This document shows, one piece after another, positions 1,594 to 10,915 of a DNA stretch of 12,202 nucleotides. Within the stretch, counting starts at the first letter, position 1. The number at the start of each line of letters is the position of its first letter. A model generated the notes under the pieces. That model searched no databases, had not been told where the DNA came from, and saw only the letters and a program-made list of their open reading frames with translations. The position numbers and the translations under genes are program-made. The DNA is from a virus (Duplodnaviria > Heunggongvirae > Uroviricota > Caudoviricetes): the IMG/VR virus record IMGVR_UViG_2703718823_000004. The stretch is one strand, 5' to 3'.

Positions 1594-2340
1594 TTACGCG
1601 GCAGGGACATTAACGGTTACTGTCGCCAGAGCGACAAAATTACCGTTATCACTCATGACCACGACCGACGTTGTTCCTTTCTCAAGTGCGTTTACCGTCA
1701 CTGTGTTCTCCTTCAACGTGGCTGTGGCCACCGCACGATGCACGGTCGACACCCTTAATGAAGGATCAGACGCATTATCCGGCAACACAGCCACAGTAAG
1801 TGTGCCTGCCTTCCCTTTTTCTAGGGTCAGGGTTTCCGGTTTAATGGTCACACCGGAAACCGGCGTAATTTTAGTGAGATTTTCAGCCATCGACGGGCGT
1901 CCCACATTGGTAACTTTCACCGTTCTGGTGATCACTTCCTTCGCCGTCACGGCCTTACCGATACTGCTGACCCAGCCACTGAACACATCCACCGTACCAT
2001 TCGGGAACCGGATTTTATAGGCCCTGACATCCCCGCTTTCAAACCATGCGATAAGCCCTTTCTGACCTTCCTCACCCGGTTTCCAGGCCAGCGTAAAACT
2101 GGTATCACCTGCAGATTTCTGTCCCTGCCCGGTCGCGGTCCAGTCCGCGTCTTCATCATCCAGGTAGTTATCGTCGTAGGGTTCAGCCGTCATCTCGCCC
2201 GGCGTCAGATCCTTCACCTTAGCCAGTCGCTGCCAGTCATCGTCTGACAACGGGTTTGCATAAGCATCAGCCTTGCCGTTGTAAACCCACAGAGTGGTAC
2301 CGGCACCTTTTACCGGCTCCAGGGGATTTGGTGTTGCCAT
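1594..2340 (-). CDS. V: Major tail protein gpV with C-terminal Ig-like domain
   Basis: 248 aa, ATG at 2340 with a GAGGA Shine-Dalgarno. [49 protein letters not shown]...[25 protein letters not shown]...[48 protein letters not shown] is near-identical to my memory of lambda gpV; the C-terminal ~90 aa are Thr/Val-rich like a Big_2 Ig-like domain. Confidence 0.95.
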
Positions 2341-2347
2341 ATCGTCC

Positions 2348-2746
2348 TCACATCTCGTAGGTAATTTTCCACAGGAGATCTGCCGATCCCCACATCATAA
2401 ACTCATCATCCCGGCGGTAGTCATACCCCTGAAGATTCATCTTCAGCAGTAACGCACTGAGGCCAGGAACCGCCTCCAGCGCAGGAAGGATTTTCTCTTC
2501 CATCCACATATCCAGTGCCGAGTCCGGTTCTTTTGCCCTGAGAAAAACTTCAATATGCAGTGTCGCCTCCCAGGTCCCCTCATCAACGAACTCGTCAGCA
2601 GCAGACGCATCAGTCAGGTAAACAGCAACAGCAGGCAGTTCCTGTTCATCAATAAAAACCGGGCGGCCGTCAAACCAGCTCACCCGCTCAGAAATATTGT
2701 CTTTCAGGGCAGACAGAACTGCCGCCCGTATTTCACGGTGTTTCAT
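2348..2746 (-). CDS. U: Tail terminator protein gpU
   Basis: 132 aa, ATG at 2746 with a GGGAGGG Shine-Dalgarno. [17 protein letters not shown]...FDGRP...AVAVYLTDA...[10 protein letters not shown]...[11 protein letters not shown]...[10 protein letters not shown]...ITYEM parallels lambda gpU (131 aa, MKHTELRAAVLDAL...ITYEM). Confidence 0.93.
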
Positions 2747-2758
2747 ACACCCTCCCTG

Positions 2759-3388
2759 TCATTTTCTTTTCAGCACCAGGCGTAACTGATGCGTCATGGC
2801 TTTCATCATCTGCACTGGTAATTTTTCCCGGTACATCCGATCCCGTTCACGTTCAAAGGTTTCTGCCAGCGGTCCGGCAGTCGGAATTTTCACCACTTCA
2901 ATCGGCAGACGGTGGCGTTTCGGCCTCCCTTTGCTGTCAGCGCCGGTGGACGATGGTGCCCACGGCATACGCTGCATCACATGCCAGCGTCCGTTAGCCA
3001 GCCGGGTGATAAAGGCGTCCGGGATCCGTCTTTTCCCCACAATCAGCACACTGCCGCCCCCTTTCAGGGCCGCACGCTGTCCTTTCTTTCTCCGTTTTCT
3101 GCGGGAAAGTCGAACGCGGGCCTCCCCCAGTTTGATGGCGGGCAGGTTGCCGGTATTGATGTAAACCTTTGCGTAAACCTTATCCGGTCGTGCCGGACTT
3201 AACCGGATGCGGGCACGGATAAGGCGACGGGGAACGGCCAGCTCCCTGGCAACTGAAGTGGCTGTTTTCGCAATGATGGCCCCCGCCACGCGGTTCAGTG
3301 TCGTGGCAGAGGCCCGGGGAACGGCACGGCGGTCAATTGCATCCAGATTTTTCATGGCCTGCGCCAGACCTTTTATTGCCATACTCAT
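2759..3388 (-). CDS. Z: Tail completion protein gpZ
   Basis: MSMAIKGLAQAMKNL...LNRVAG...VARE...NTGNLPAIKLGEARVRLSRRKRRKKGQRAALKGGGSVLIVGKRRIPDAFITRLANGRWHVMQRM... matches the lambda gpZ pattern (MAIKGL...KLGNARV.LSRRRRRKKGQR...KGGGSVL.VG.RRIPGAF...NGRWHVMQR). The ATG at 3388 overlaps the upstream stop (ATGA); the ATG at 3382 (MAIKGL) has better AGGA spacing and may be the true start. Confidence 0.9.
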   Translation of the reverse strand: MSMAIKGLAQAMKNLDAIDRRAVPRASATTLNRVAGAIIAKTATSVARELAVPRRLIRARIRLSPARPDKVYAKVYINTGNLPAIKLGEARVRLSRRKRRKKGQRAALKGGGSVLIVGKRRIPDAFITRLANGRWHVMQRMPWAPSSTGADSKGRPKRHRLPIEVVKIPTAGPLAETFERERDRMYREKLPVQMMKAMTHQLRLVLKRK

Positions 3389-3666
3389 TCCTGTTCGACA
3401 AAAATCCGGGGTTTACCGTTGTACGTGTCATAACGGGTCACCGTCAGTGTACGGCCCTCAAACACAACAACATCATGACGGGCCGGACGGTACCGGGCTG
3501 AAAACACCACCAGTGACAACTGGCTGCCCGAAAGCGCCCCCATCTCCGCGGACTCTTCCTCCGGCATCACGTCATACACGACGCCGTTAATCTCCGCCTG
3601 TTTGCCCATCACCCGAACGGTCGCCCCGTCCATCCGGCAACACATTCGCGTAAACAGATCAGACAT
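3385..3666 (-). CDS. Putative head-tail joining / head completion protein (lambda FII position)
   Basis: 93-aa ORF whose start and stop are each coupled to the neighbouring gene (8-nt overlap upstream, ATGA downstream). Sits where FII does in lambda, with loose resemblance to it; function assigned mainly by position. Confidence 0.7.
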   Translation of the reverse strand: MSDLFTRMCCRMDGATVRVMGKQAEINGVVYDVMPEEESAEMGALSGSQLSLVVFSARYRPARHDVVVFEGRTLTVTRYDTYNGKPRIFVEQE

Positions 3667-3985
3667 TGATTTTTACCGCCACAGTGGCGCTGTTTGCAGG
3701 AGCATTTTCCCAGGCTACCCCCGCTGCCACCGCACCGTCTGCAGCCAGCTGCACAACCCCGTCCTTCAGATAAACCACCGAGCCGGACTGAATGTCGTCA
3801 GCAGACTGTTTGGGCAGCAGGAACACGCCTTCGGCAAAACCGTCACCTGCATCACCGGCAGGAATATCGGTAATGGCCACGACCACCATACTGCCGACCA
3901 CCACCGCAGCACCGCTCAGGATGGTCTGATCTCCGGCATTCACCAGTTCAATGGTGGTACCGTCCTGTACAAAATTTTTCGCCAT
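3659..3985 (-). CDS. Small Ala/Gly/Val-rich head-associated protein, DUF2190-like (possible capsid decoration protein)
   Basis: 108 aa, MAKNFVQDGTTIELVNAGDQ...GVFLLPKQ...; ATG at 3985 with a GGAGA Shine-Dalgarno. Composition and N-terminal MAKN.VQ.G motif resemble the small DUF2190 proteins I remember next to major capsid genes; family assignment is from memory and unverified. Confidence 0.75.
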   Translation of the reverse strand: MAKNFVQDGTTIELVNAGDQTILSGAAVVVGSMVVVAITDIPAGDAGDGFAEGVFLLPKQSADDIQSGSVVYLKDGVVQLAADGAVAAGVAWENAPANSATVAVKINV

Positions 3986-4001
3986 AATGCTGTTTCTCCG
4001 G

Positions 4002-4025
4002 ACAGCCCCTGTGGGGCTGTTTTTC
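4002..4025 (+). terminator. Hairpin plus T-run; intrinsic-terminator-like on the plus strand
   Basis: ACAGCCCC (4002-4009), loop TGT, GGGGCTGT (4013-4020): a perfect 8-bp stem followed directly by TTTTTC on the plus strand. Confidence 0.5.
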
Positions 4026-4031
4026 AGGCAT

Positions 4032-4050
4032 AAAAAAAGCCCTTTCGGGC
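4032..4050 (-). terminator. Hairpin plus U7; intrinsic-terminator-like on the minus strand just after the capsid gene stop
   Basis: Minus strand reads GCCC-GAAA-GGGC followed by TTTTTTT (complement of plus A 4032-4038), about 20 nt after the capsid stop at 4073-4075. The stem is only 4 bp (GAAA tetraloop), so likely a partial terminator at best. Confidence 0.45.
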
Positions 4051-4072
4051 AGTGATTGTGATAACTCGGTTA

Positions 4073-6097
4073 TCAGGCCACCGACGAACGCACCAGCCCG
4101 CGCCAGTCAAGTGGTGCCACTCCGGCATCAATACGGATTTTTGTGGCAATGCCGTCAGTAGTGAAACCTTCCTGCTGATCAATGTATGGAGTGTCCACAC
4201 CATCCAGCCAGGCCACTTCAATGGTGTCAGTGCCCTGTGCCGCCGCCAGATACCAGGTTTTCGGATCTGCCGCATCAAGACGCGCTTCTGCAATCACCTC
4301 AGCAAAGTTCTGGATGGGGTTAATGACACCGGCGTTTGCATCCGCCCCTTTCACACTGGCCGATTTGATGGTCTGGTTCGCCACCGTCTCCAGTGCCACC
4401 GGTACCAGCATAAAGGCCGGACGGATATTCAGGGCGCGATCGCCTTCTTTCTGCAGGCGCATCATCTGACGGGCCGCATCCAGTCCGGAAACGGAAATCC
4501 CACCGGTGGCAATATTTTTGTGATCGGCATGGAACAGCGCCTTACCGTCTGACAGTTTCGGGTTATCCGTCAGCACCTTGTAAACCAGGTCACCAATCGT
4601 TGCCTTCGCCGCACGCCCCATCTTCATCGGCACGTCCACCAGCATATTCAGATCATCATTGATAATGGCCTGGCGGGTGATGGAGAAAATCTCCCCGTAA
4701 GTGGCCAGTGCAATGGTCTCCTTGCGATCTGAGGTGGTGATGTATTTATACTCCGCCCCCTCACGAACCTGGCGCAGAGAACCAAAACCGCCCATCCCCA
4801 CGCGATACGCTGTTTTGAAGTCTGACAGGCGTCCCTTACGGGTCCACTTCTGGAAGGTTTCTTCTGATTCCTCCCAGCCCTGGATCAGCCCCTTGTTCGA
4901 CACATCCAGCAGAATATTGCCAAAATCAGAGGTGCTGTGCGTCAGCGCCAGCCCGACCATCTGCATGGGGTTATAACTGGCCACCCCAATACCGCGCTCC
5001 GTCAGTGACATGCGAGCCCATTCACGCAGGGTCATCCCGTTATAGGCGTTATCCTTCTCGACATTTTCAAATCCGGCACGGGCCAGCATCGCCTGGCGGA
5101 TCCCGTCCCCCACAAAATTGCCGTTTCCGGCATAAATATGGGCCGGTGTGTTTTTGTTGGTCGGCGAGGACTCCTTGCCCATTTCATTCAGCAGACGTTC
5201 ACGGGCCATTTCCAGCGAACAGTCAGGATCAGCCACACACTGCGCCTGAAGCGCCTGATAGCGACCGCCAAACATGGCAAACAGATCGTTAATGCCTGAC
5301 ATGCGGGCTTTCTGCTCAGCCATAACACGGGCGCGAATGGTCGCCTCATCAGACACTGCCGGTACCGGTGATGGTTCTGTTACCGCCGGTGCAGGGATTG
5401 TCACTGTGGTATCACGCGGGGCACTGTTGTATGGCTGCGTGATCATATTTCGGATGGATTCCGGCATCTTTTTAAATTCCTCTGTACGTTTTGACTGAAT
5501 ACATGCCATTGTCTTAACGGCTGGCGTCACCTGGTCTGCAAATCCGTGTGCCAGACACTCGGCACCGGACATCCAGGTCTCATCCGCCAGCATGGCGGCA
5601 ATTTCATCGGTAGTTTTTCCGGTTTTCTGCGCATATACCGGCACCATAACCGACTCAAGTTTGTCCAGACGTTCGGCATAAGTGCGCATTTTCTCCGCAT
5701 CACCACCGCTGATCCCCCAGGGTTTATGGATCATCATGAAGGCATTTTCCGGCATAATGACCGTGTCACCGGCCATCGCAATCAGGGATGCCATCGAGGC
5801 GGCAACGCCATCCACATACACGGTAATGGCCGCACCGTGATTTTTCAGGGCATTAAAAATGGCGATGCCTTCAAAGACATCGCCACCCGGTGAGTTGATG
5901 TGGAGATTAATGTGGGTGATATCACCCAGGGCATTCATATCGCTGACAAACTGCTTCGCGGTAACTCCCCAGAAACCAATCTCGTCATAAATATAAATAT
6001 CCGCCTCACCCTGACCACCCGCCTGCATCCTGAACCAGGATTTATTCTTCATGCTGGCTGTCGGTGGCCTGCTGACGCTGTTGTTCAGTTCCGGCAC
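4073..6097 (-). CDS. Fused prohead protease (ClpP/S14-like) - scaffold-like linker - major capsid protein (HK97-fold-like)
   Basis: One continuous frame. N-terminal part has ClpP motifs (IYIYDEIGFWG, INSPGGDVFEG, GVAASMASLIAMAGD, MMIHKPWG; compare E. coli ClpP AASMGAFLL and MIHQP). A Pro/Ala/Gln-rich middle follows, then a C-terminal ~400-aa capsid-like domain. Track start 6244 is a GTG about 200 nt inside the portal gene. I place the start at the GTG at 6097, 5 nt after AAGGAGG; the ATG at 6052 (MKNKSWF...) is the alternative. Confidence 0.88.
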   Translation of the reverse strand: MPELNNSVSRPPTASMKNKSWFRMQAGGQGEADIYIYDEIGFWGVTAKQFVSDMNALGDITHINLHINSPGGDVFEGIAIFNALKNHGAAITVYVDGVAASMASLIAMAGDTVIMPENAFMMIHKPWGISGGDAEKMRTYAERLDKLESVMVPVYAQKTGKTTDEIAAMLADETWMSGAECLAHGFADQVTPAVKTMACIQSKRTEEFKKMPESIRNMITQPYNSAPRDTTVTIPAPAVTEPSPVPAVSDEATIRARVMAEQKARMSGINDLFAMFGGRYQALQAQCVADPDCSLEMARERLLNEMGKESSPTNKNTPAHIYAGNGNFVGDGIRQAMLARAGFENVEKDNAYNGMTLREWARMSLTERGIGVASYNPMQMVGLALTHSTSDFGNILLDVSNKGLIQGWEESEETFQKWTRKGRLSDFKTAYRVGMGGFGSLRQVREGAEYKYITTSDRKETIALATYGEIFSITRQAIINDDLNMLVDVPMKMGRAAKATIGDLVYKVLTDNPKLSDGKALFHADHKNIATGGISVSGLDAARQMMRLQKEGDRALNIRPAFMLVPVALETVANQTIKSASVKGADANAGVINPIQNFAEVIAEARLDAADPKTWYLAAAQGTDTIEVAWLDGVDTPYIDQQEGFTTDGIATKIRIDAGVAPLDWRGLVRSSVA

Positions 6098-7544
6098 TGT
6101 TGCCTCCTTTGTCGTTGACGGGGTCAGTATCAAAGACCAGCCCCAGTCTGCTGTTTTCATCAATTTCAGCCTTGCGGCGACGTTTGACCTCATCCGGATT
6201 GCGCCCGCCTGCACGCACCCAGTCAGATTCTGTCGCTGCACCACCCCGGATCTGAATTCTCCAGGCTTCAGCTTCCTTAACCGGGTCGATCCACGGCATC
6301 ACCGGACCGGAATACGTCGCGTTATATAGCGTTTTCATCTCCACATCCGCCGGAATTTTCAGCAGACCTGCCGCAACCACCATATTCAGCCATGTCCGGT
6401 ACACCGGGCGGGTTACCGCGCCAATAAAACAGTCCTGCAGGATCAGGTAACCATCCGTGGACTCGACCAGCTCCTGCCGCTGGGCACTGTAGGTGCCGTT
6501 ATAGTTACGCGCCGCACTGGAAAAACTCAGACGACTGCCAGCTGCCACTGCACGCAACTGGCCGTTGCGGAAAGTTTCAAGGTTGGGATTGGGACGGTCA
6601 GATTTGACCATGCCGATATCCTCGCCCTTGCGCAAATCGTCATAAATAATACCCGGGGTGATATGGACTTCCCGGTTGGTATCTTTGATCCCCGGATCTT
6701 CATAGTCCTGTCCGTCCCCTTTACGGATATACAGTCCCAGCGCCGCGGCAATACGCGCAGCCGTCAGTTCCGCATCCTCATATTCCTTAAGGGCACTGAT
6801 CCGCATCAGCACCCCCGATAACATGGATGAGCCTCGCGTCTGATGCAGACGGCGTATGAACTTCAGGTGGATCATTTTTCCGGCAGCGATTTCTTTCGTA
6901 TCACTCTGCCGACCGCTGACCGGATAATTTTTATAAACCAGATATTTTTTCGGTCTTCCCCACTCATCAAGAAAAACCCCCTGATTCAGCCCGGCGGATT
7001 CATCAGTGCGCATGGGAACAAAATCCGGCTCCATCGCCTCAAGCCAGAATGGCACTCCCGCCGTCCGTTCCAGACCGTTTCCCGCGCCACTGACCATCTG
7101 CGCAAACACTTCACCATCCCGCAGCCAGGTCCGCAGCAGTAAACGTTCAAGCACGGGACGGGTATACTGCCCTGTCACATCCGGACTCACGGACCATTCA
7201 GCCCACAACCGGCGGATATCCGCAGCCAGCTCTGCCGCCATTTCCCCGTTTTTTCGTAATGGCTGAGGCTCCACAATAATTCCCCTGGCACCAATCACCC
7301 GCTCTTCCAGCTTGTCAAACACACCAATCACCAGGTCATGATTGATATCCAGAAAACGGGCCTGCTCCCGCAGGGAAACCGCACCGTATTTACTGAGCTG
7401 ATCAGCAGAGCGATTTTCCCGCCGGGCTTTATGTGTCCGGGTCGGTTTCACCGCCTCATAGGCCATGATTAACGCCCTTGAACGCAGTCTGGCTGCTTTC
7501 CACCCGGGGGAAAACACGCCTATCACATCATCAATAATTGCCAT
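6042..7544 (-). CDS. B: Portal protein, gpB-like
   Basis: 500 aa, ATG at 7544 overlapping the W stop (TAATG). Size, position immediately after terminase and W, and overall similarity to lambda-family portal proteins as I remember them. Confidence 0.92.
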   Translation of the reverse strand: MAIIDDVIGVFSPGWKAARLRSRALIMAYEAVKPTRTHKARRENRSADQLSKYGAVSLREQARFLDINHDLVIGVFDKLEERVIGARGIIVEPQPLRKNGEMAAELAADIRRLWAEWSVSPDVTGQYTRPVLERLLLRTWLRDGEVFAQMVSGAGNGLERTAGVPFWLEAMEPDFVPMRTDESAGLNQGVFLDEWGRPKKYLVYKNYPVSGRQSDTKEIAAGKMIHLKFIRRLHQTRGSSMLSGVLMRISALKEYEDAELTAARIAAALGLYIRKGDGQDYEDPGIKDTNREVHITPGIIYDDLRKGEDIGMVKSDRPNPNLETFRNGQLRAVAAGSRLSFSSAARNYNGTYSAQRQELVESTDGYLILQDCFIGAVTRPVYRTWLNMVVAAGLLKIPADVEMKTLYNATYSGPVMPWIDPVKEAEAWRIQIRGGAATESDWVRAGGRNPDEVKRRRKAEIDENSRLGLVFDTDPVNDKGGNSAGTEQQRQQATDSQHEE

Positions 7545-7780
7545 TAAAACCTCGCCAGTTTAAATCCTGGTTTTCCCCGCCTGCGGCTCACCATCGCGGC
7601 AAGCCTGCGTTCCCACTCCTGACGTCCGGCGCGGATCTGAGAAAGGCTTTCCAGCGTCAGTTGCTGTCCGTTGAAGGTGACAGACTTCCCCTCAAGTACG
7701 GCCATTTCCGCTTCACGGTACCGCTGTATCATTTCTCTGGCTTCTTCTGTGCTCACAACCAGCCTCCTGATGTTATCCAT
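7544..7780 (-). CDS. W: Head-tail joining protein gpW
   Basis: 78 aa, MDNIRRLVVSTEEAREMIQRYREAEMAVLEGKSVTFNGQQLTLESLSQIRAGRQEWERRLAAMVSRRRGKPGFKLARF; the C-terminal RRRGKPGF resembles the lambda gpW C-terminus RRRGPAGF, and it lies between terminase and portal as in lambda. Confidence 0.85.
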   Translation of the reverse strand: MDNIRRLVVSTEEAREMIQRYREAEMAVLEGKSVTFNGQQLTLESLSQIRAGRQEWERRLAAMVSRRRGKPGFKLARF

Positions 7781-9876
7781 GGATTATCTTCCGCACGCTC
7801 CGTCCGCAGTTTTTTCTTCCGGCGACGGCGTTTTTCTGCCCCGGCCGTCAGTTCCGGGGATACCGTTTCACCAGAACACTCCTGCGGGAAGACGAGCCAC
7901 GTTTCCCGCTGTGCCCAGTCCGGTGCGGAGGGCCAGCGGATCTTTTCGTAACCATGCAGAACGGCAAGCGCATCCGCATAAACCAGCAGGTCAAACGCCT
8001 CGTTAGCTCCCCTGCCCGGTTTTCGCCATTTTCCGTCACTGCCGCGCTCTTCATAGGTCAGCTCATCGTAAAACCATCGCCCCAGCCAGTCGGGAAAGTG
8101 GATATAGTTCGGCCCTGGTGTGTCACGCCACAGGGCATTATTTACACGGTCCTTAAACGCATCCGTCTGAACCAGCCACAGCGCGACATCGCCACTGGCT
8201 CTGGCACGGCGGGCACTTCTGCCGGTATTATCCGGGAAGGTACGGTTAATCAGCCTGTCACGGCGAAGTCCATCCCCCTTGAACAGAAACACCCTGTTGC
8301 CCAGTCCGTCACTCCGGCAACGACGCCAGAAACGATAGGCGTTATCTGTCACCCCGGCTTCCCCTCCCGTATCCACCGCCATGGCCATCAGACGCATGCG
8401 CACATCCGGATCAGAAGCCAGCGGCCATGTTTTATGGAACACATCCGTCAGCAACAAATCCCAGTCCTCCGGATATGCCGCCGGATCAACCGGCAGACTT
8501 TCACCGTTGGGACTGCAGCGCAGTGAATGCCGGATGTTATAGCGATCAACAATCCAGCGTTCCCCCTGCTCTCCGTATCCGGTGATCTGCACAACAAAAC
8601 GGCGATTTTTACCGCCCTGTACGTCAACCGTTGCCTCAATAAAACGCACACCATCCGGCACAGATCGCCGGGGAAACGGCTCGGCACGCTGTTCAAGCAG
8701 TTCACTTTTACGCTGTTCCGTGGCTGAACGGGGCAGATAGGGTCGTCCGATATCGGTGTTCACCACCGCTTTCAGGGTCTCTTCACTGCCGGTTCGCTCA
8801 TACTCTTCTTCTGCCGCCAGCAGTTTAAAAATCAGTTGTTCCCAGGTCTGAAACGCCGCGGCCGGCCCCTCCATCCAGAATGACGCAATCCGGGAATTTC
8901 GTGGCGTTCCGGTGATACTGCCGTCCGCCACCGCCCGTTCACCTTCACGAAGCCAGATCCCTTTGTTATTCAGTTCGCGTTTCTGCTCAGGGGCAATCAG
9001 CCCGCGACAATGCGGACACATCAGACGGGCAGCCTGACCGGCAGCCACAAAATCCGGGTTATTCCGGTATCCGGTCATGTTATCCATCACCGGCTGAAAA
9101 TATTCCCCGCAGTGCGGACACGGCCAGTACCACCGGCGGCGGTCTCCCCGGTTATACAGTGACAGGATCCCCGTTGTTGGCGGTGCCTCATGTGCGCCGC
9201 CACAGCGCCATTTGGTGTCAGTGATATCCCGCCCCGGCGAACTCTCGACCAGGGTCATCCCCGAGGACATAAAGGTGGTGGTACGCTTTGATGCCAGGGT
9301 GAAGGCATCCCCTTCCCCGTCCACGTTTTCAGGGAAACGGTCATAATCCGTCAGCGCCACACGACGGTAATCCGAAGAAGAAAATACAGTGATCGACGGC
9401 CAGCCAATCTTCAGGAAGGAGCCGTCAAGAAACATTTTATCGTGGACGTTGTTGTCATTACGGGAAGGACTGAGACGCTTACTGACCTCCGGGCTGTGAC
9501 GAAACGTTCTGGAAAGACGCGTTCTGGAGTGTTCCCGCGCCTTCGTCTCGGTCATTTGCACCACCAGCATATCCGCCGGATCACAGATGATGCCGTACAC
9601 AATCCAGCCGTCAATCAGCCCTTCGGTTTTCCCGGTTCGCGCAGGTCCCACAAACACCACCGCGTCATATTCACGGGCTGATAATGTATTAATGGGGTCA
9701 ATCATATAGGGCGTCAGCGATGACTCCCACGGACCGGAAGTATTGGCTCCCCGTGGTACCCGCATATAACGCCTGATGGCTTCCGCTACTGGTAACCGGC
9801 TGGGCGGGCGAAACAGCGAGGCCACTTCGCGCCAGATATCGGATGCGCGGCTATGGCTCTCGTTCACCTGATTCAC
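7753..9876 (-). CDS. A: Terminase large subunit, gpA-like
   Basis: 707 aa. GTG start at 9876 overlaps the Nu1 stop (minus ATGTGA); lambda A also starts with GTG as I recall. N-terminus MNQVNESHSRASDIWREVASLFRPP parallels lambda MNISNSQVNRLRHFVRAGLRSLFRPEP. Walker A VFVGPARTGKTE; Cys pairs CPHCGEYF...CPHCRG as in the gpA zinc-finger region. Confidence 0.95.
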   Translation of the reverse strand: MNQVNESHSRASDIWREVASLFRPPSRLPVAEAIRRYMRVPRGANTSGPWESSLTPYMIDPINTLSAREYDAVVFVGPARTGKTEGLIDGWIVYGIICDPADMLVVQMTETKAREHSRTRLSRTFRHSPEVSKRLSPSRNDNNVHDKMFLDGSFLKIGWPSITVFSSSDYRRVALTDYDRFPENVDGEGDAFTLASKRTTTFMSSGMTLVESSPGRDITDTKWRCGGAHEAPPTTGILSLYNRGDRRRWYWPCPHCGEYFQPVMDNMTGYRNNPDFVAAGQAARLMCPHCRGLIAPEQKRELNNKGIWLREGERAVADGSITGTPRNSRIASFWMEGPAAAFQTWEQLIFKLLAAEEEYERTGSEETLKAVVNTDIGRPYLPRSATEQRKSELLEQRAEPFPRRSVPDGVRFIEATVDVQGGKNRRFVVQITGYGEQGERWIVDRYNIRHSLRCSPNGESLPVDPAAYPEDWDLLLTDVFHKTWPLASDPDVRMRLMAMAVDTGGEAGVTDNAYRFWRRCRSDGLGNRVFLFKGDGLRRDRLINRTFPDNTGRSARRARASGDVALWLVQTDAFKDRVNNALWRDTPGPNYIHFPDWLGRWFYDELTYEERGSDGKWRKPGRGANEAFDLLVYADALAVLHGYEKIRWPSAPDWAQRETWLVFPQECSGETVSPELTAGAEKRRRRKKKLRTERAEDNPWITSGGWL

Positions 9877-10349
9877 ATATCGGCCTCATCACAACAGTCA
9901 ATGACTGCCTTTTCCAGTGTGTCGCGGATCTCATCAACCACAATCTGTACTTCATTCAGTTGTGATGCGGTCCACCCTCTGTCCCTTTCCAGCCGGTCAG
10001 GCCAGGTTTCCAGTACCTGAACTATCGCTTTCACCACGACAGAAAAGGACCGCCTGACATCACTGACAGGCACAAGCTGAACAGTTTCATGCTGAAATTT
10101 AAGACGCTCGCGCTCGGACTGATACCATGCCTTCCGATCATGTGGGTTCATCTCTTCATCTTCGGAAGTCGGTGGTTTTTCCAGCAACGAAATAATCAAA
10201 TCCGTCAGGAGATACAGTTTTTTCTTTTCATTACTGCCTGGTGCAAGAGGAACATCCGCCATTCTGGCGGCAACAGTCTGCCGGTGCAGACCTGAAAGGG
10301 CTGCCAGTTGATTAATATTTAACTTCATATTTTTCAGCTCGCCGTCCAT
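9873..10349 (-). CDS. nu1: Terminase small subunit, Nu1-like, with N-terminal winged-helix DNA-binding domain
   Basis: 158 aa. ATG at 10349 with a GGAGGG Shine-Dalgarno 5-6 nt upstream. MKLNINQLAALSGLHRQTVAARMADVP resembles lambda Nu1 MEVNKKQLADIFGASIRTIQNWQEQGMPV; acidic C-terminus; directly upstream of and overlapping the large subunit. Confidence 0.88.
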   Translation of the reverse strand: MDGELKNMKLNINQLAALSGLHRQTVAARMADVPLAPGSNEKKKLYLLTDLIISLLEKPPTSEDEEMNPHDRKAWYQSERERLKFQHETVQLVPVSDVRRSFSVVVKAIVQVLETWPDRLERDRGWTASQLNEVQIVVDEIRDTLEKAVIDCCDEADM

Positions 10350-10532
10350 TTACATCCCTCCACATAAACCGCTGAACAAAAGTGGCTCTTTTTTTGTAAA
10401 GAAATGCCGCCATATAAAGATGTCGAACAAAAATCAACCATAATCATCATCTTTTTAATGCTAAACACATTAAAAACAATAAGTTACCATTATGATGATG
10501 ATGACGATAAAATCACAAAAATGCGCCTTTTT

Positions 10533-10549
10533 CCGCGCCGCCCGCCCCG
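10533..10549 (-). other. Candidate cosN (cohesive-end site)
   Basis: Minus strand reads ACACGGGGCGGGCGGCGCGGAAAAAGG, sharing ACGGGGCGG with the lambda cos junction (TTACGGGGCGGCGACCTCGCGGG). It lies about 185 bp upstream of the Nu1 start (lambda: about 190 bp), followed toward Nu1 by AT-rich DNA with repeated GGCG(G)CATTT and ATTTTTGT motifs. Confidence 0.4.
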
Positions 10550-10586
10550 TGTTCAGGCCCACCCCACCAGGAGGACCCGCAAAAAT

Positions 10587-10605
10587 GATAATGATTATCA
10601 TTTTC
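10587..10605. promoter_or_regulatory. Fur-box-like palindrome (18/19 match to GATAATGATAATCATTATC on the minus strand)
   Basis: Plus GATAATGATTATCATTTTC; minus GAAAATGATAATCATTATC. Embedded in a perfect palindrome AAAATGATAAT-G-ATTATCATTTT (10582..10604). Function unproven; could instead be a terminase or other dimer-binding site. Confidence 0.35.
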
Positions 10606-10915
10606 AATGTAGTCCAGTTTCTTCCACCATCGCACCGGACAGGCGACTATGAGGGGACAACGCCGCGCTCCGTTAACGCGGTAAACCCCGGTGTGTATCG
10701 TTTTTGATTATCCCCGCACACTCGCGCAGAGGAGTCTCCCGGTAGGGCTGCGGTCTCTGTTCATGTGGGAATACGGCGACGATACTGCGCAAAGACATGC
10801 TTCAGAAATACATAAGTAAACTAAAATATTGTATCTCTGTGGCTAATTACGTAAATTGGTGGCTTGGCCCCTTTAGCCACCGGCAAATCTTCAGCGGATT
10901 ATCCTTGGCCGGTTT

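Follow-up and report, generated by a model that had tools for sequence, protein, structure and literature searches.

A conserved terminator-like hairpin and a covarying second hairpin lie between the capsid and decoration genes in the late operon of lambdoid prophages

We analyzed a 12,202-nucleotide stretch of Caudoviricetes DNA (IMG/VR record IMGVR_UViG_2703718823_000004; hereafter, the window), which is E. coli lambdoid prophage DNA 98 to 99% identical to VT1-Sakai and CP-1639 (Stx-converting or related lambdoid prophages). Throughout the window, the sizeable ORFs with Pfam matches are encoded on the minus strand, and ORF calls and Pfam matches together give the layout of a lambda-like late operon (Table 1). 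Just upstream of the region considered here is a fusion gene with matches to CLP_protease (E = 1.8e-36) and Phage_capsid_4 (E = 8.9e-56), whose product is named [quoted passage not shown] by PGAP in E. coli genomes; its longest ORF extends into the portal gene, and translation therefore probably begins further 3′. The next gene encodes a head decoration protein (Phage_cement_2, E = 7.7e-18), homologs of which are labeled "head decoration" in the records of phages mEp213 and mEp460, and it is followed by tail genes. These matches bear out the gene assignment of an earlier reading made from the sequence alone (the sequence-only reading), which had placed the major capsid gene upstream and head/tail genes downstream. 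Other neighboring genes in the array overlap or stand 3 to 12 nt apart, and the 87 nt between the capsid and decoration genes form the sole sizeable gap in the terminase-to-tail array. With its flanks, this gap is present in 529 of 5,426 complete E. coli genomes (∼10%, Shiga-toxin phages included), in up to 4 copies per genome.

Table 1. Genes and sequence features of the window, in the order in which the minus strand is read
Feature	Position	Strand	Details
Small terminase gene	9873-10349	minus	Pfam/ORF
Large terminase gene	7753-9876	minus	Pfam/ORF
Short W-like ORF		minus	between large terminase and portal in gene order
Portal gene	6042-7544	minus	Pfam/ORF
ClpP-like prohead protease/scaffold/major capsid fusion gene	4073-6244	minus	723-aa longest ORF; stop TGA 4075-4073
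AT-rich stop-codon hairpin	4059-4075	minus	UGAUAAC-CGA-GUUAUCA; 7 bp; ΔG −4.8
Whole gap	3986-4072	minus	TGA-UAACCGAGUUAUCACAAUCACU-GCCC-GAAA-GGGC-UUUUUUU-AUGCCUGAAAA-ACAGCCCC-ACA-GGGGCUGU-CC-GGAG-AAACAGCAUU-AUG
Hairpin 1	4039-4050	minus	GCCC (4050-4047)-GAAA-GGGC (4042-4039); 4 G-C pairs, GNRA-type tetraloop
U7 tract	4032-4038	minus	abuts hairpin 1 directly
Spacer	4021-4031	minus	AUGCCUGAAAA; 11 nt; consensus AU-R-C/U-CUGAAA
T5 run	4020-4024	plus	3′ of hairpin 2; the run begins on the final base of the 8-bp stem, leaving U4 after the stem
Hairpin 2	4002-4020	minus	ACAGCCCC-ACA-GGGGCUGU; 8 perfect pairs, 3-nt loop; palindrome, folds on the plus strand too
Hairpin 2 arms as inverted repeat	4002-4009, 4013-4020		ACAGCCCC/GGGGCTGT
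Shine-Dalgarno GGAG of decoration gene	3996-3999	minus	2 nt 3′ of hairpin 2, 10 nt 5′ of ATG
Head decoration/cement gene	3659-3985	minus	108 aa; DUF2190/PF09956; ATG 3985-3983
Gifsy-2/FII-like protein, then Z, U, and tail tube protein V		minus	3′ of decoration gene

The gap contains two hairpins, whose sequences and coordinates are as the sequence-only reading described them. Hairpin 1 begins 22 nt past the TGA of the capsid fusion gene and has the features expected of an intrinsic terminator: a GC-rich stem-loop with an abutting U-tract on the transcribed strand, at a noncoding site past a stop codon in the direction of transcription. A stem of 4 bp puts it near the bottom of the range for intrinsic terminators, and a terminator scan of the window with a threshold of 5 pairs did not call it; the same scan flags the homologous hairpin of Gifsy-2, where the stem has a fifth, G-U pair, as terminator-like. 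Folding on both strands, which had been proposed as a check with weak energies for both stems counting against a terminator, showed hairpin 1 to be weak (ΔG −6.7 kcal/mol) and hairpin 2 to be stable both on the minus strand (−13.8 kcal/mol) and as plus-strand RNA (−16.2 kcal/mol), where two G-U pairs lengthen the stem. Between the U7 tract and hairpin 2 is a short spacer with a mean unpaired probability of 0.5 to 0.7, and the predicted accessibility of both the spacer and the Shine-Dalgarno sequence is moderate.

Taken singly, this sequence makes a case for the hairpins that is suggestive but not compelling. A hairpin of the form GC4-loop-GC4 followed by T6 or longer arises in 1.3% of dinucleotide shuffles of the window, and the exact hairpin 1 motif arises in none of 200 shuffles. 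A perfect 8-bp inverted repeat such as that of hairpin 2 occurs at least once in 62% of dinucleotide shuffles of the 12-kb window (mean, 1.1), and folding of the 107-nt region gives modest z-scores (minus strand, −1.9; plus strand, −2.2). That about one perfect 8-bp repeat is expected per 12 kb speaks for a reading in which the hairpins are accidental palindromes of a spacer under no selection, or a feature of the DNA itself (e.g., a joint left by recombination of head modules), and do nothing as RNA. Nor does the whole gap exceed the flanking coding DNA (62 to 75%) in its identity to relatives (48 to 73%), although to come near the identity of coding DNA is unusual for noncoding DNA at such a distance. 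That the hairpins are nonrandom is argued by conservation and covariation and not by features of the single sequence.

The comparative set comprised 313 loci with relatives of the decoration protein (35 to 100% identity), drawn from GenBank phages and IMG/VR; a scan of genome contigs with the decoration protein gave 3 distant loci, and diversity came through IMG/VR scans with four queries. The sequences extracted from capsid stop to decoration start at the 313 loci reduce to 71 distinct versions, 66 of which were put to an automated hairpin test. By this strict test, 58 of these 66 versions contain a hairpin followed by a U-run; the Pseudomonas types fail solely because their U-run is interrupted. 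Almost all related lineages, E. coli, Pseudomonas, and metagenomic phages among them, have a hairpin and U-run at the same position, and among the extracted loci a few distant ones have no terminator of any kind (e.g., L012, whose gap is 16 nt). At least six different stem sequences occupy the hairpin 1 position, each followed by a U-run: GCCC/GGGC in Stx and mEp types, AGCCC/GGGCU in Klebsiella, GGCCC/GGGCU in Fels-1 and Gifsy-2, GACCGCC/GGCGGUU in Citrobacter, AACCGUC/GGCGGUU in Hafnia, AGCCCCGC/GCGGGGCU in the Pseudomonas LESphi2 type (with the interrupted U-run), GGCACCUC/GAGGUGCC and ACCCCGC/GCGGGGU in metagenomic phages, and AAGGGCUGC/GCGGCCUUU in a Microbulbifer prophage. Pairing is therefore kept through sequence change in relatives. 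Within Enterobacterales the stem is nearly invariant, and for this reason its formal covariation is weak in our alignment (A4); U5 to U8 is nearly invariant there as well, and the 22 nt between the capsid stop and hairpin 1 are not conserved.

The records of mEp213, mEp460/mEp043, and Ayreon mark the homologous hairpin as a rho-independent terminator (NC_019720, NC_019716, and MF807953). In these phages, whose flanking genes have ∼70% DNA identity to those of the window, a GCCC-GNAA-GGGC stem, U7 to U8, the spacer, and a second hairpin stand at the same position; the annotations are computational and cover hairpin 1 only. Hairpin 1 of the window lacks an extra closing pair that is present in some relatives. 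Given a position kept with differing stems, together with these prior annotations, the terminator motif after the capsid gene is a selected, ancestral feature of the head module, and the original proposal that hairpin 1 and its U7 form a terminator on the coding strand holds up. The same proposal had called the terminator partial, which fits the weak 4-bp stem; we consider it probably leaky. The strict retention of the U-run makes it likely that real termination is involved, since a U-run matters for termination or Hfq binding and not for blocking exonucleases.

Hairpin 2 is limited to Enterobacterales lineages; in Pseudomonas and metagenomic types the U-run is followed by the Shine-Dalgarno sequence within about 10 nt, with neither spacer nor hairpin 2. 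Across lineages its stems read ACAGCCCC, CAGCCCC, CAGCCC, UCCGGCAC, UCCGGUCA, UCCGGCU, AAGGCGGC, and GGGGCGGC, and the loop is hypervariable even between prophages that are 97 to 99% identical (ACA, ACU, GCA, GUC, CCG, and others). A covariance model of the two-hairpin module (R1), built from 29 sequences, has one match in the window (76 bits, E ∼1e-24) and matches all 47 enteric representatives. Five of the six inner pairs of hairpin 2 have changed on both sides, and 90.9% of cells are paired in an alignment that was fitted to the model and so favors structure; the raw gap sequences show the same. For the whole two-hairpin structure, the number of double-change cells is 37, compared with 9.1 ± 2.4 in column shuffles (none of 500 reached the observed value), and when partners are slid by 1 to 3 columns the covariation score falls from 0.235 to 0.04 to 0.11. 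Retention of a stem around a hypervariable loop is the signature of a selected structure as read from these sequences, and pairing is conserved rather than sequence, as in stabilizing stem-loops. Covariation is silent on which strand, or whether the DNA itself, is under selection, because hairpin 2 is palindromic; the count of G-U versus A-C wobbles (13:2 in the raw data) shrinks to 2 or 3 informative cases, pointing in both directions, once misaligned Citrobacter rows are discounted. No Rfam 15 family matches the window at its gathering threshold, and relaxing the E value to 10 over positions 3900 to 4160 returns a single 9.7-bit chance hit inside the decoration gene.

The position of hairpin 2 is tied to translation signals of the decoration gene: it ends 1 to 4 nt 5′ of an invariant GGAG in E. 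coli, Klebsiella, Salmonella, and Providencia types, and GGAG itself is invariant or nearly so across Enterobacterales (alignment A2). The spacer sequence is also shared across genera, even where both stems differ (alignments A2 and A4). Neutral drift would be a poor account of U7, spacer, and GGAG remaining nearly invariant amid varying neighboring bases, of a hairpin and U-run recurring in place with unrelated stems across genera, or of compensatory changes in hairpin 2 so far above the shuffle and slide controls. The reading of the hairpins as chance palindromes or a DNA-level joint is already disfavored by these observations, and we give it almost no credence.

A second claim of the sequence-only reading was that hairpin 2 is followed on the plus strand by T5, so that the pair looks like a partial or bidirectional terminator whose plus-oriented member could block antisense transcription. 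The T5 run exists, but its first T lies inside the stem, so that only U4 follows the hairpin. In such a convergent pair, hairpin 1 with U7 would stop coding-strand transcription and hairpin 2 with the T-run would stop antisense transcription arriving from the tail side. The stability of hairpin 2 as plus-strand RNA, with U4 to U5 after it in the window lineage, would suit this role, as would the existence of antisense small RNAs (sRNAs) in the late regions of Sakai prophages related to this one, such as EcOnc22 (located between tail genes I and J) and HnrS (3′ of Rz); convergent termination sites 4 to 40 nt apart are known in phages, where such pairs mostly lie between head-to-head genes (PMC9163698). 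The opposite-strand U-tract, however, is not conserved in relatives. It is U4 in Providencia, and it shrinks to A/G-UUUCAGG in mEp-, Klebsiella-, and Salmonella-type relatives that keep the hairpin, most relatives reading AUUUCAGG or GUUUCAGG. In the Citrobacter/Hafnia group a U-run (UUUUCCUUUU, UUUUUUGU) instead stands 3′ of hairpin 2 on the coding strand, where hairpin 2 looks like a second, tandem coding-strand terminator. The plus strand of the region encodes no gene, all genes of the region being on the minus strand and none convergent; promoter-like matches on the plus strand occur at chance frequency with none close upstream, the nearest being a weak match at 3376 to 3405. A role in stopping antisense RNA would also leave the tie between hairpin 2 and the Shine-Dalgarno sequence unaccounted for. 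Since the T-run is peculiar to one lineage and shares a base with the stem, it makes a weak basis for the antisense-terminator idea: an antisense terminator is possible for the window lineage, yet on the comparative data it would not be what selection kept, and we regard a convergent terminator pair as improbable. The bidirectional part of the original claim is thus not sustained.

A stem-loop followed by at least seven U residues is also typical of the terminators of Hfq-binding sRNAs (PMC4104026), and late regions of EHEC prophages encode several Hfq-bound sRNAs. Hairpin 1 with U7 might accordingly be the Hfq-binding 3′ module of an sRNA derived from the capsid mRNA, or sit at an RNase E site that releases one. 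Neither HnrS nor any other EcOnc sRNA maps to the gap. The copy of the gap in Sakai prophage Sp15 (NC_002695.2, 2911142-2911228) has no Hfq-CRAC peak among the 60-odd orphan peaks in Table S2 of Tree et al. (2014); as the cells were an uninduced lysogen and IS629 interrupts the capsid gene of Sp15, this counts against an sRNA only weakly. The lack of conservation in the 22 nt between the stop codon and hairpin 1 likewise speaks against an sRNA, an explanation that we consider very unlikely.

Expression data from a homologous locus bear on whether the gap divides two transcripts. In Salmonella 14028s, Gifsy-2 genes STM1034-8 (decoration to major tail) are reported to form a HilA-responsive unit that omits the capsid gene STM1033, their expression correlates with that of SPI-1 genes in lysogens, and Rockhopper called a transcription stop where STM1033 ends; the HilA response rests on RNA-seq, HilA ChIP having failed in that study (PMC5013294). 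By analogy, these data lend independent, if indirect, support to the homologous gap as a transcript boundary and make an internal start a possibility. The gap would then be a full unit boundary combining a terminator with a start, with the decoration-to-tail transcript beginning in the spacer and hairpin 2 serving as its 5′-terminal stabilizing stem-loop. Besides the omission of the capsid gene from the Gifsy-2 unit, this is favored by retention of the spacer U7-AU(A/G)CCUGAAA across genera despite change in both stems, and by the reading that a start ∼7 nt past TAT(A/G)CC would hit the first bases of hairpin 2. Promoter scans of the gap, both in the window and in Gifsy-2, detected no sigma-70-like promoter. 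In TAT(G/A)CC the essential −7 T is missing, and Fels-1-type relatives read TACGCC, so a sigma-70 promoter there was rejected, as were, by eye, sigma-32, sigma-S, and sigma-E readings and one with CTGAAA as a −35 element, in each of which the spacing or the −7 T is wrong. Further, the HilA evidence comes from RNA-seq, E. coli does not have HilA, and Pseudomonas and metagenomic relatives have the terminator with neither spacer nor hairpin 2. We therefore judge an internal start unlikely. More doubtful still is a fuller version of the idea, also drawn from Gifsy-2, by which the decoration-to-major-tail block would be expressed in a lysogen separately from the capsid gene and outside the lytic program, by way of a composite boundary of terminator, start, and 5′ hairpin. 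The conserved U7-AUACCUGAAA would in that case be a promoter or processing determinant, and hairpin 2 a protected 5′ end.

Sequence, strand, position, conservation, and covariation are shown directly; that termination occurs, how efficient it is, whether the RNA is processed, and what hairpin 2 does are inferred. The most probable reading, which we hold with some but not high confidence, is a leaky coding-strand terminator, or a boundary between transcripts, within the late (morphogenesis) operon, combined with a leader hairpin of the decoration mRNA. Hairpin 1 and U7 would act as a weak intrinsic (factor-independent) terminator for polymerase that lacks the antitermination modification, and Q-modified polymerase would mostly pass it during the lytic cycle. 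The terminator would thereby trim or insulate transcription into the decoration-tail block and may modestly lower its transcript level, and where termination occurred it would leave a capsid mRNA with a hairpin-capped 3′ end. Hairpin 2, on this account separate from the terminator, would most probably serve, on the coding-strand RNA, as a stabilizing or insulating stem that frees the decoration ribosome binding site, and it could become a protected 5′ end if the RNA were cut, or started, in the A/U-rich spacer.

Two considerations qualify the leaky-terminator reading. A 4-bp terminator is expected to be mostly read through by Q-modified polymerase in lytic growth. Read-through should be high because late transcription is Q-antiterminated, and such override would leave the strict retention of U7 unaccounted for. 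The suggestion of the sequence-only reading that the terminator lowers expression of downstream genes is, moreover, incomplete and would be a poor fit if the decoration protein is needed in capsid-like amounts, a demand assumed by analogy with lambda gpD. Late transcription of Sakai Stx phages is known to need Q antitermination at tR′ (PMC7547250). Intraoperon terminators that close the procapsid module have been described in lambdoid phages, their roles being unknown (PMC8022706), and long-read transcriptomics of other phages indicates that most phage terminators are leaky and balance expression (PMC9163698).

Terminators after coat genes in phage late operons are a recognized, if poorly understood, kind of element, and a homolog of this one is already annotated in sister phages; what is added here is modest, namely, a covarying second hairpin tied to the decoration ribosome binding site and a spacer conserved in sequence. 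The leaky terminator T-phi of phage T7 also follows the major capsid gene. It resembles hairpin 1 in its place after the structural gene of highest abundance, and its substantial read-through balances transcripts; it differs in serving the phage's own RNA polymerase with a long, stable hairpin, whereas the window has a 4-bp stem and depends on host polymerase with a Q-type antiterminator. For hairpin 2, the comparison is with E. coli mRNAs of the ompA and papA type, which carry 5′-proximal stabilizing stem-loops, and with intercistronic hairpins that set segmental mRNA stability. Shared features are a stable GC-rich hairpin 5′ of the ribosome binding site, an adjoining A/U-rich single-stranded segment, and conservation of structure rather than sequence; those hairpins are defined by lying a few nucleotides from the mRNA 5′ end, whereas hairpin 2 of the window is placed by its distance to the Shine-Dalgarno sequence. 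The terminators at the procapsid end of P22-like and other lambdoid phages are alike in being predicted intrinsic terminators after the head-shell genes of a single-promoter, antiterminated late operon, and the authors of the phage L study suggested partial termination there, or a stop to transcription begun without antitermination (PMC8022706). They differ in that the head module is unrelated (P22 coat rather than a ClpP/capsid fusion) and no second, conserved leader hairpin has been described. In Pseudomonas phages, leaky terminators whose read-through balances transcripts have been mapped by ONT-cappable-seq (PMC9163698).

If the terminator works, it would set the ratio of capsid mRNA to decoration and tail mRNA, and, in a head module that ∼10% of complete E. 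coli genomes carry in their prophages, it would keep stray transcripts out of the tail block. The element is useful for annotation and engineering of these phages and bears on why antiterminated late operons retain internal terminators, without revealing a new mechanism. The two-hairpin layout and spacer would gain weight only with demonstration of an internal start or processing site, one whose expression is lysogen specific, as hinted for Gifsy-2.

Other candidate elements in the gap did not survive comparison with relatives. An upstream ORF from the AUG after U7 exists in the window lineage only, the triplet being AUA, GUA, or ACG elsewhere, and pairing of CCUG in the spacer with CAGG in decoration codons 7 and 8 is absent from mEp460. 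RNAfold gives some E. coli and Klebsiella variants an attenuator-like fold, in which the 3′ arm of hairpin 1 and the U-run pair with the A-run and the 5′ arm of hairpin 2; we rejected it because Salmonella and Providencia types, with their unrelated hairpin 2, cannot form it and because the polymerase reaches segment 3 only once it has passed the U-tract. The AT-rich hairpin over the capsid stop codon is swapped for unrelated sequence in three close relatives (L077, L078, and L081) and is probably incidental.

The loop of hairpin 2, the perfect 8-bp stem with a 3-nt loop that lies in the gap between the protease/capsid fusion gene and the decoration gene, differs between prophages in both sequence and length. 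At window 4010-4012 and the homologous positions of loci L014-L093, this variation takes in the innermost stem pairs as well as the loop, with variants that include ACA, ACT, GCA, GTC, CCG, CCCG, and an extra G. Prophages with differing loops are 97 to 99% identical across the rest of the gap, and comparison of these sequences therefore suggests that the centre of the palindrome is a local mutational hotspot.

The genes downstream of the gap have a counterpart in Gifsy-2, where STM1034-8, running from decoration to major tail, are reported from RNA-seq as likely HilA targets coexpressed with SPI-1 invasion genes; the capsid gene is left out of this set (PMC5013294). A lysogen would then express decoration and tail-completion genes alongside invasion genes.

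Upstream of the gap, the protease/capsid fusion gene is intact in the window (4073-6244), in contrast to its copy in Sakai prophage Sp15 (NC_002695.2, 2911229-2914566), which is interrupted by an IS629 (IS1203) insertion, and the window therefore comes from a prophage other than Sp15. The source prophage is possibly functional. The longest fusion open reading frame begins with a GTG codon at 6244 and so shares about 200 nt with the portal gene (6042-6244); because the overlap in the annotated Sakai homologue is just 56 nt, the true start is probably near 6100.

Hairpin 2 aside, all other perfect inverted repeats of at least 8 bp in the window, at 10453-10475 and 10582-10604, are confined to the non-coding region that separates Rz from the small terminase gene and is presumably the site of cos. 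On the plus strand of this region, 10613-10791 shares 93.9% identity with the segment directly 3′ of Rz in Sakai prophage Sp9. That segment carries EcOnc12 (HnrS), an Hfq-bound multicopy sRNA and hha repressor (PMC13502914). Its Hfq peak maps to approximately 10680-10727 (plus strand) in the window, and, as judged from homology, an HnrS-like sRNA, oriented antisense to the late operon, is probably encoded within 10613-10791.

Coordinates of features in the window and in related prophages
Feature	Position	Strand	Remarks
STM1034-8 block	Gifsy-2 locus (L005) 1759-3153; window homologues 1594-3985		
Non-coding region	window 10350-10915		566 nt; between Rz and small terminase gene
Terminator-like hairpin with T7 run	window 10369-10395	plus	directed into antisense strand of terminase gene
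EcOnc22	Sakai Sp15 (L314) ~2902714-2902774	plus	tail gene I/J gap; antisense to late operon; outside window

EcOnc22, an Hfq-bound sRNA of about 85 nt that is destabilised without Hfq and has further copies in Sp11 and Sp14, is another non-coding element inside a morphogenesis operon of the late-operon type found in the window.
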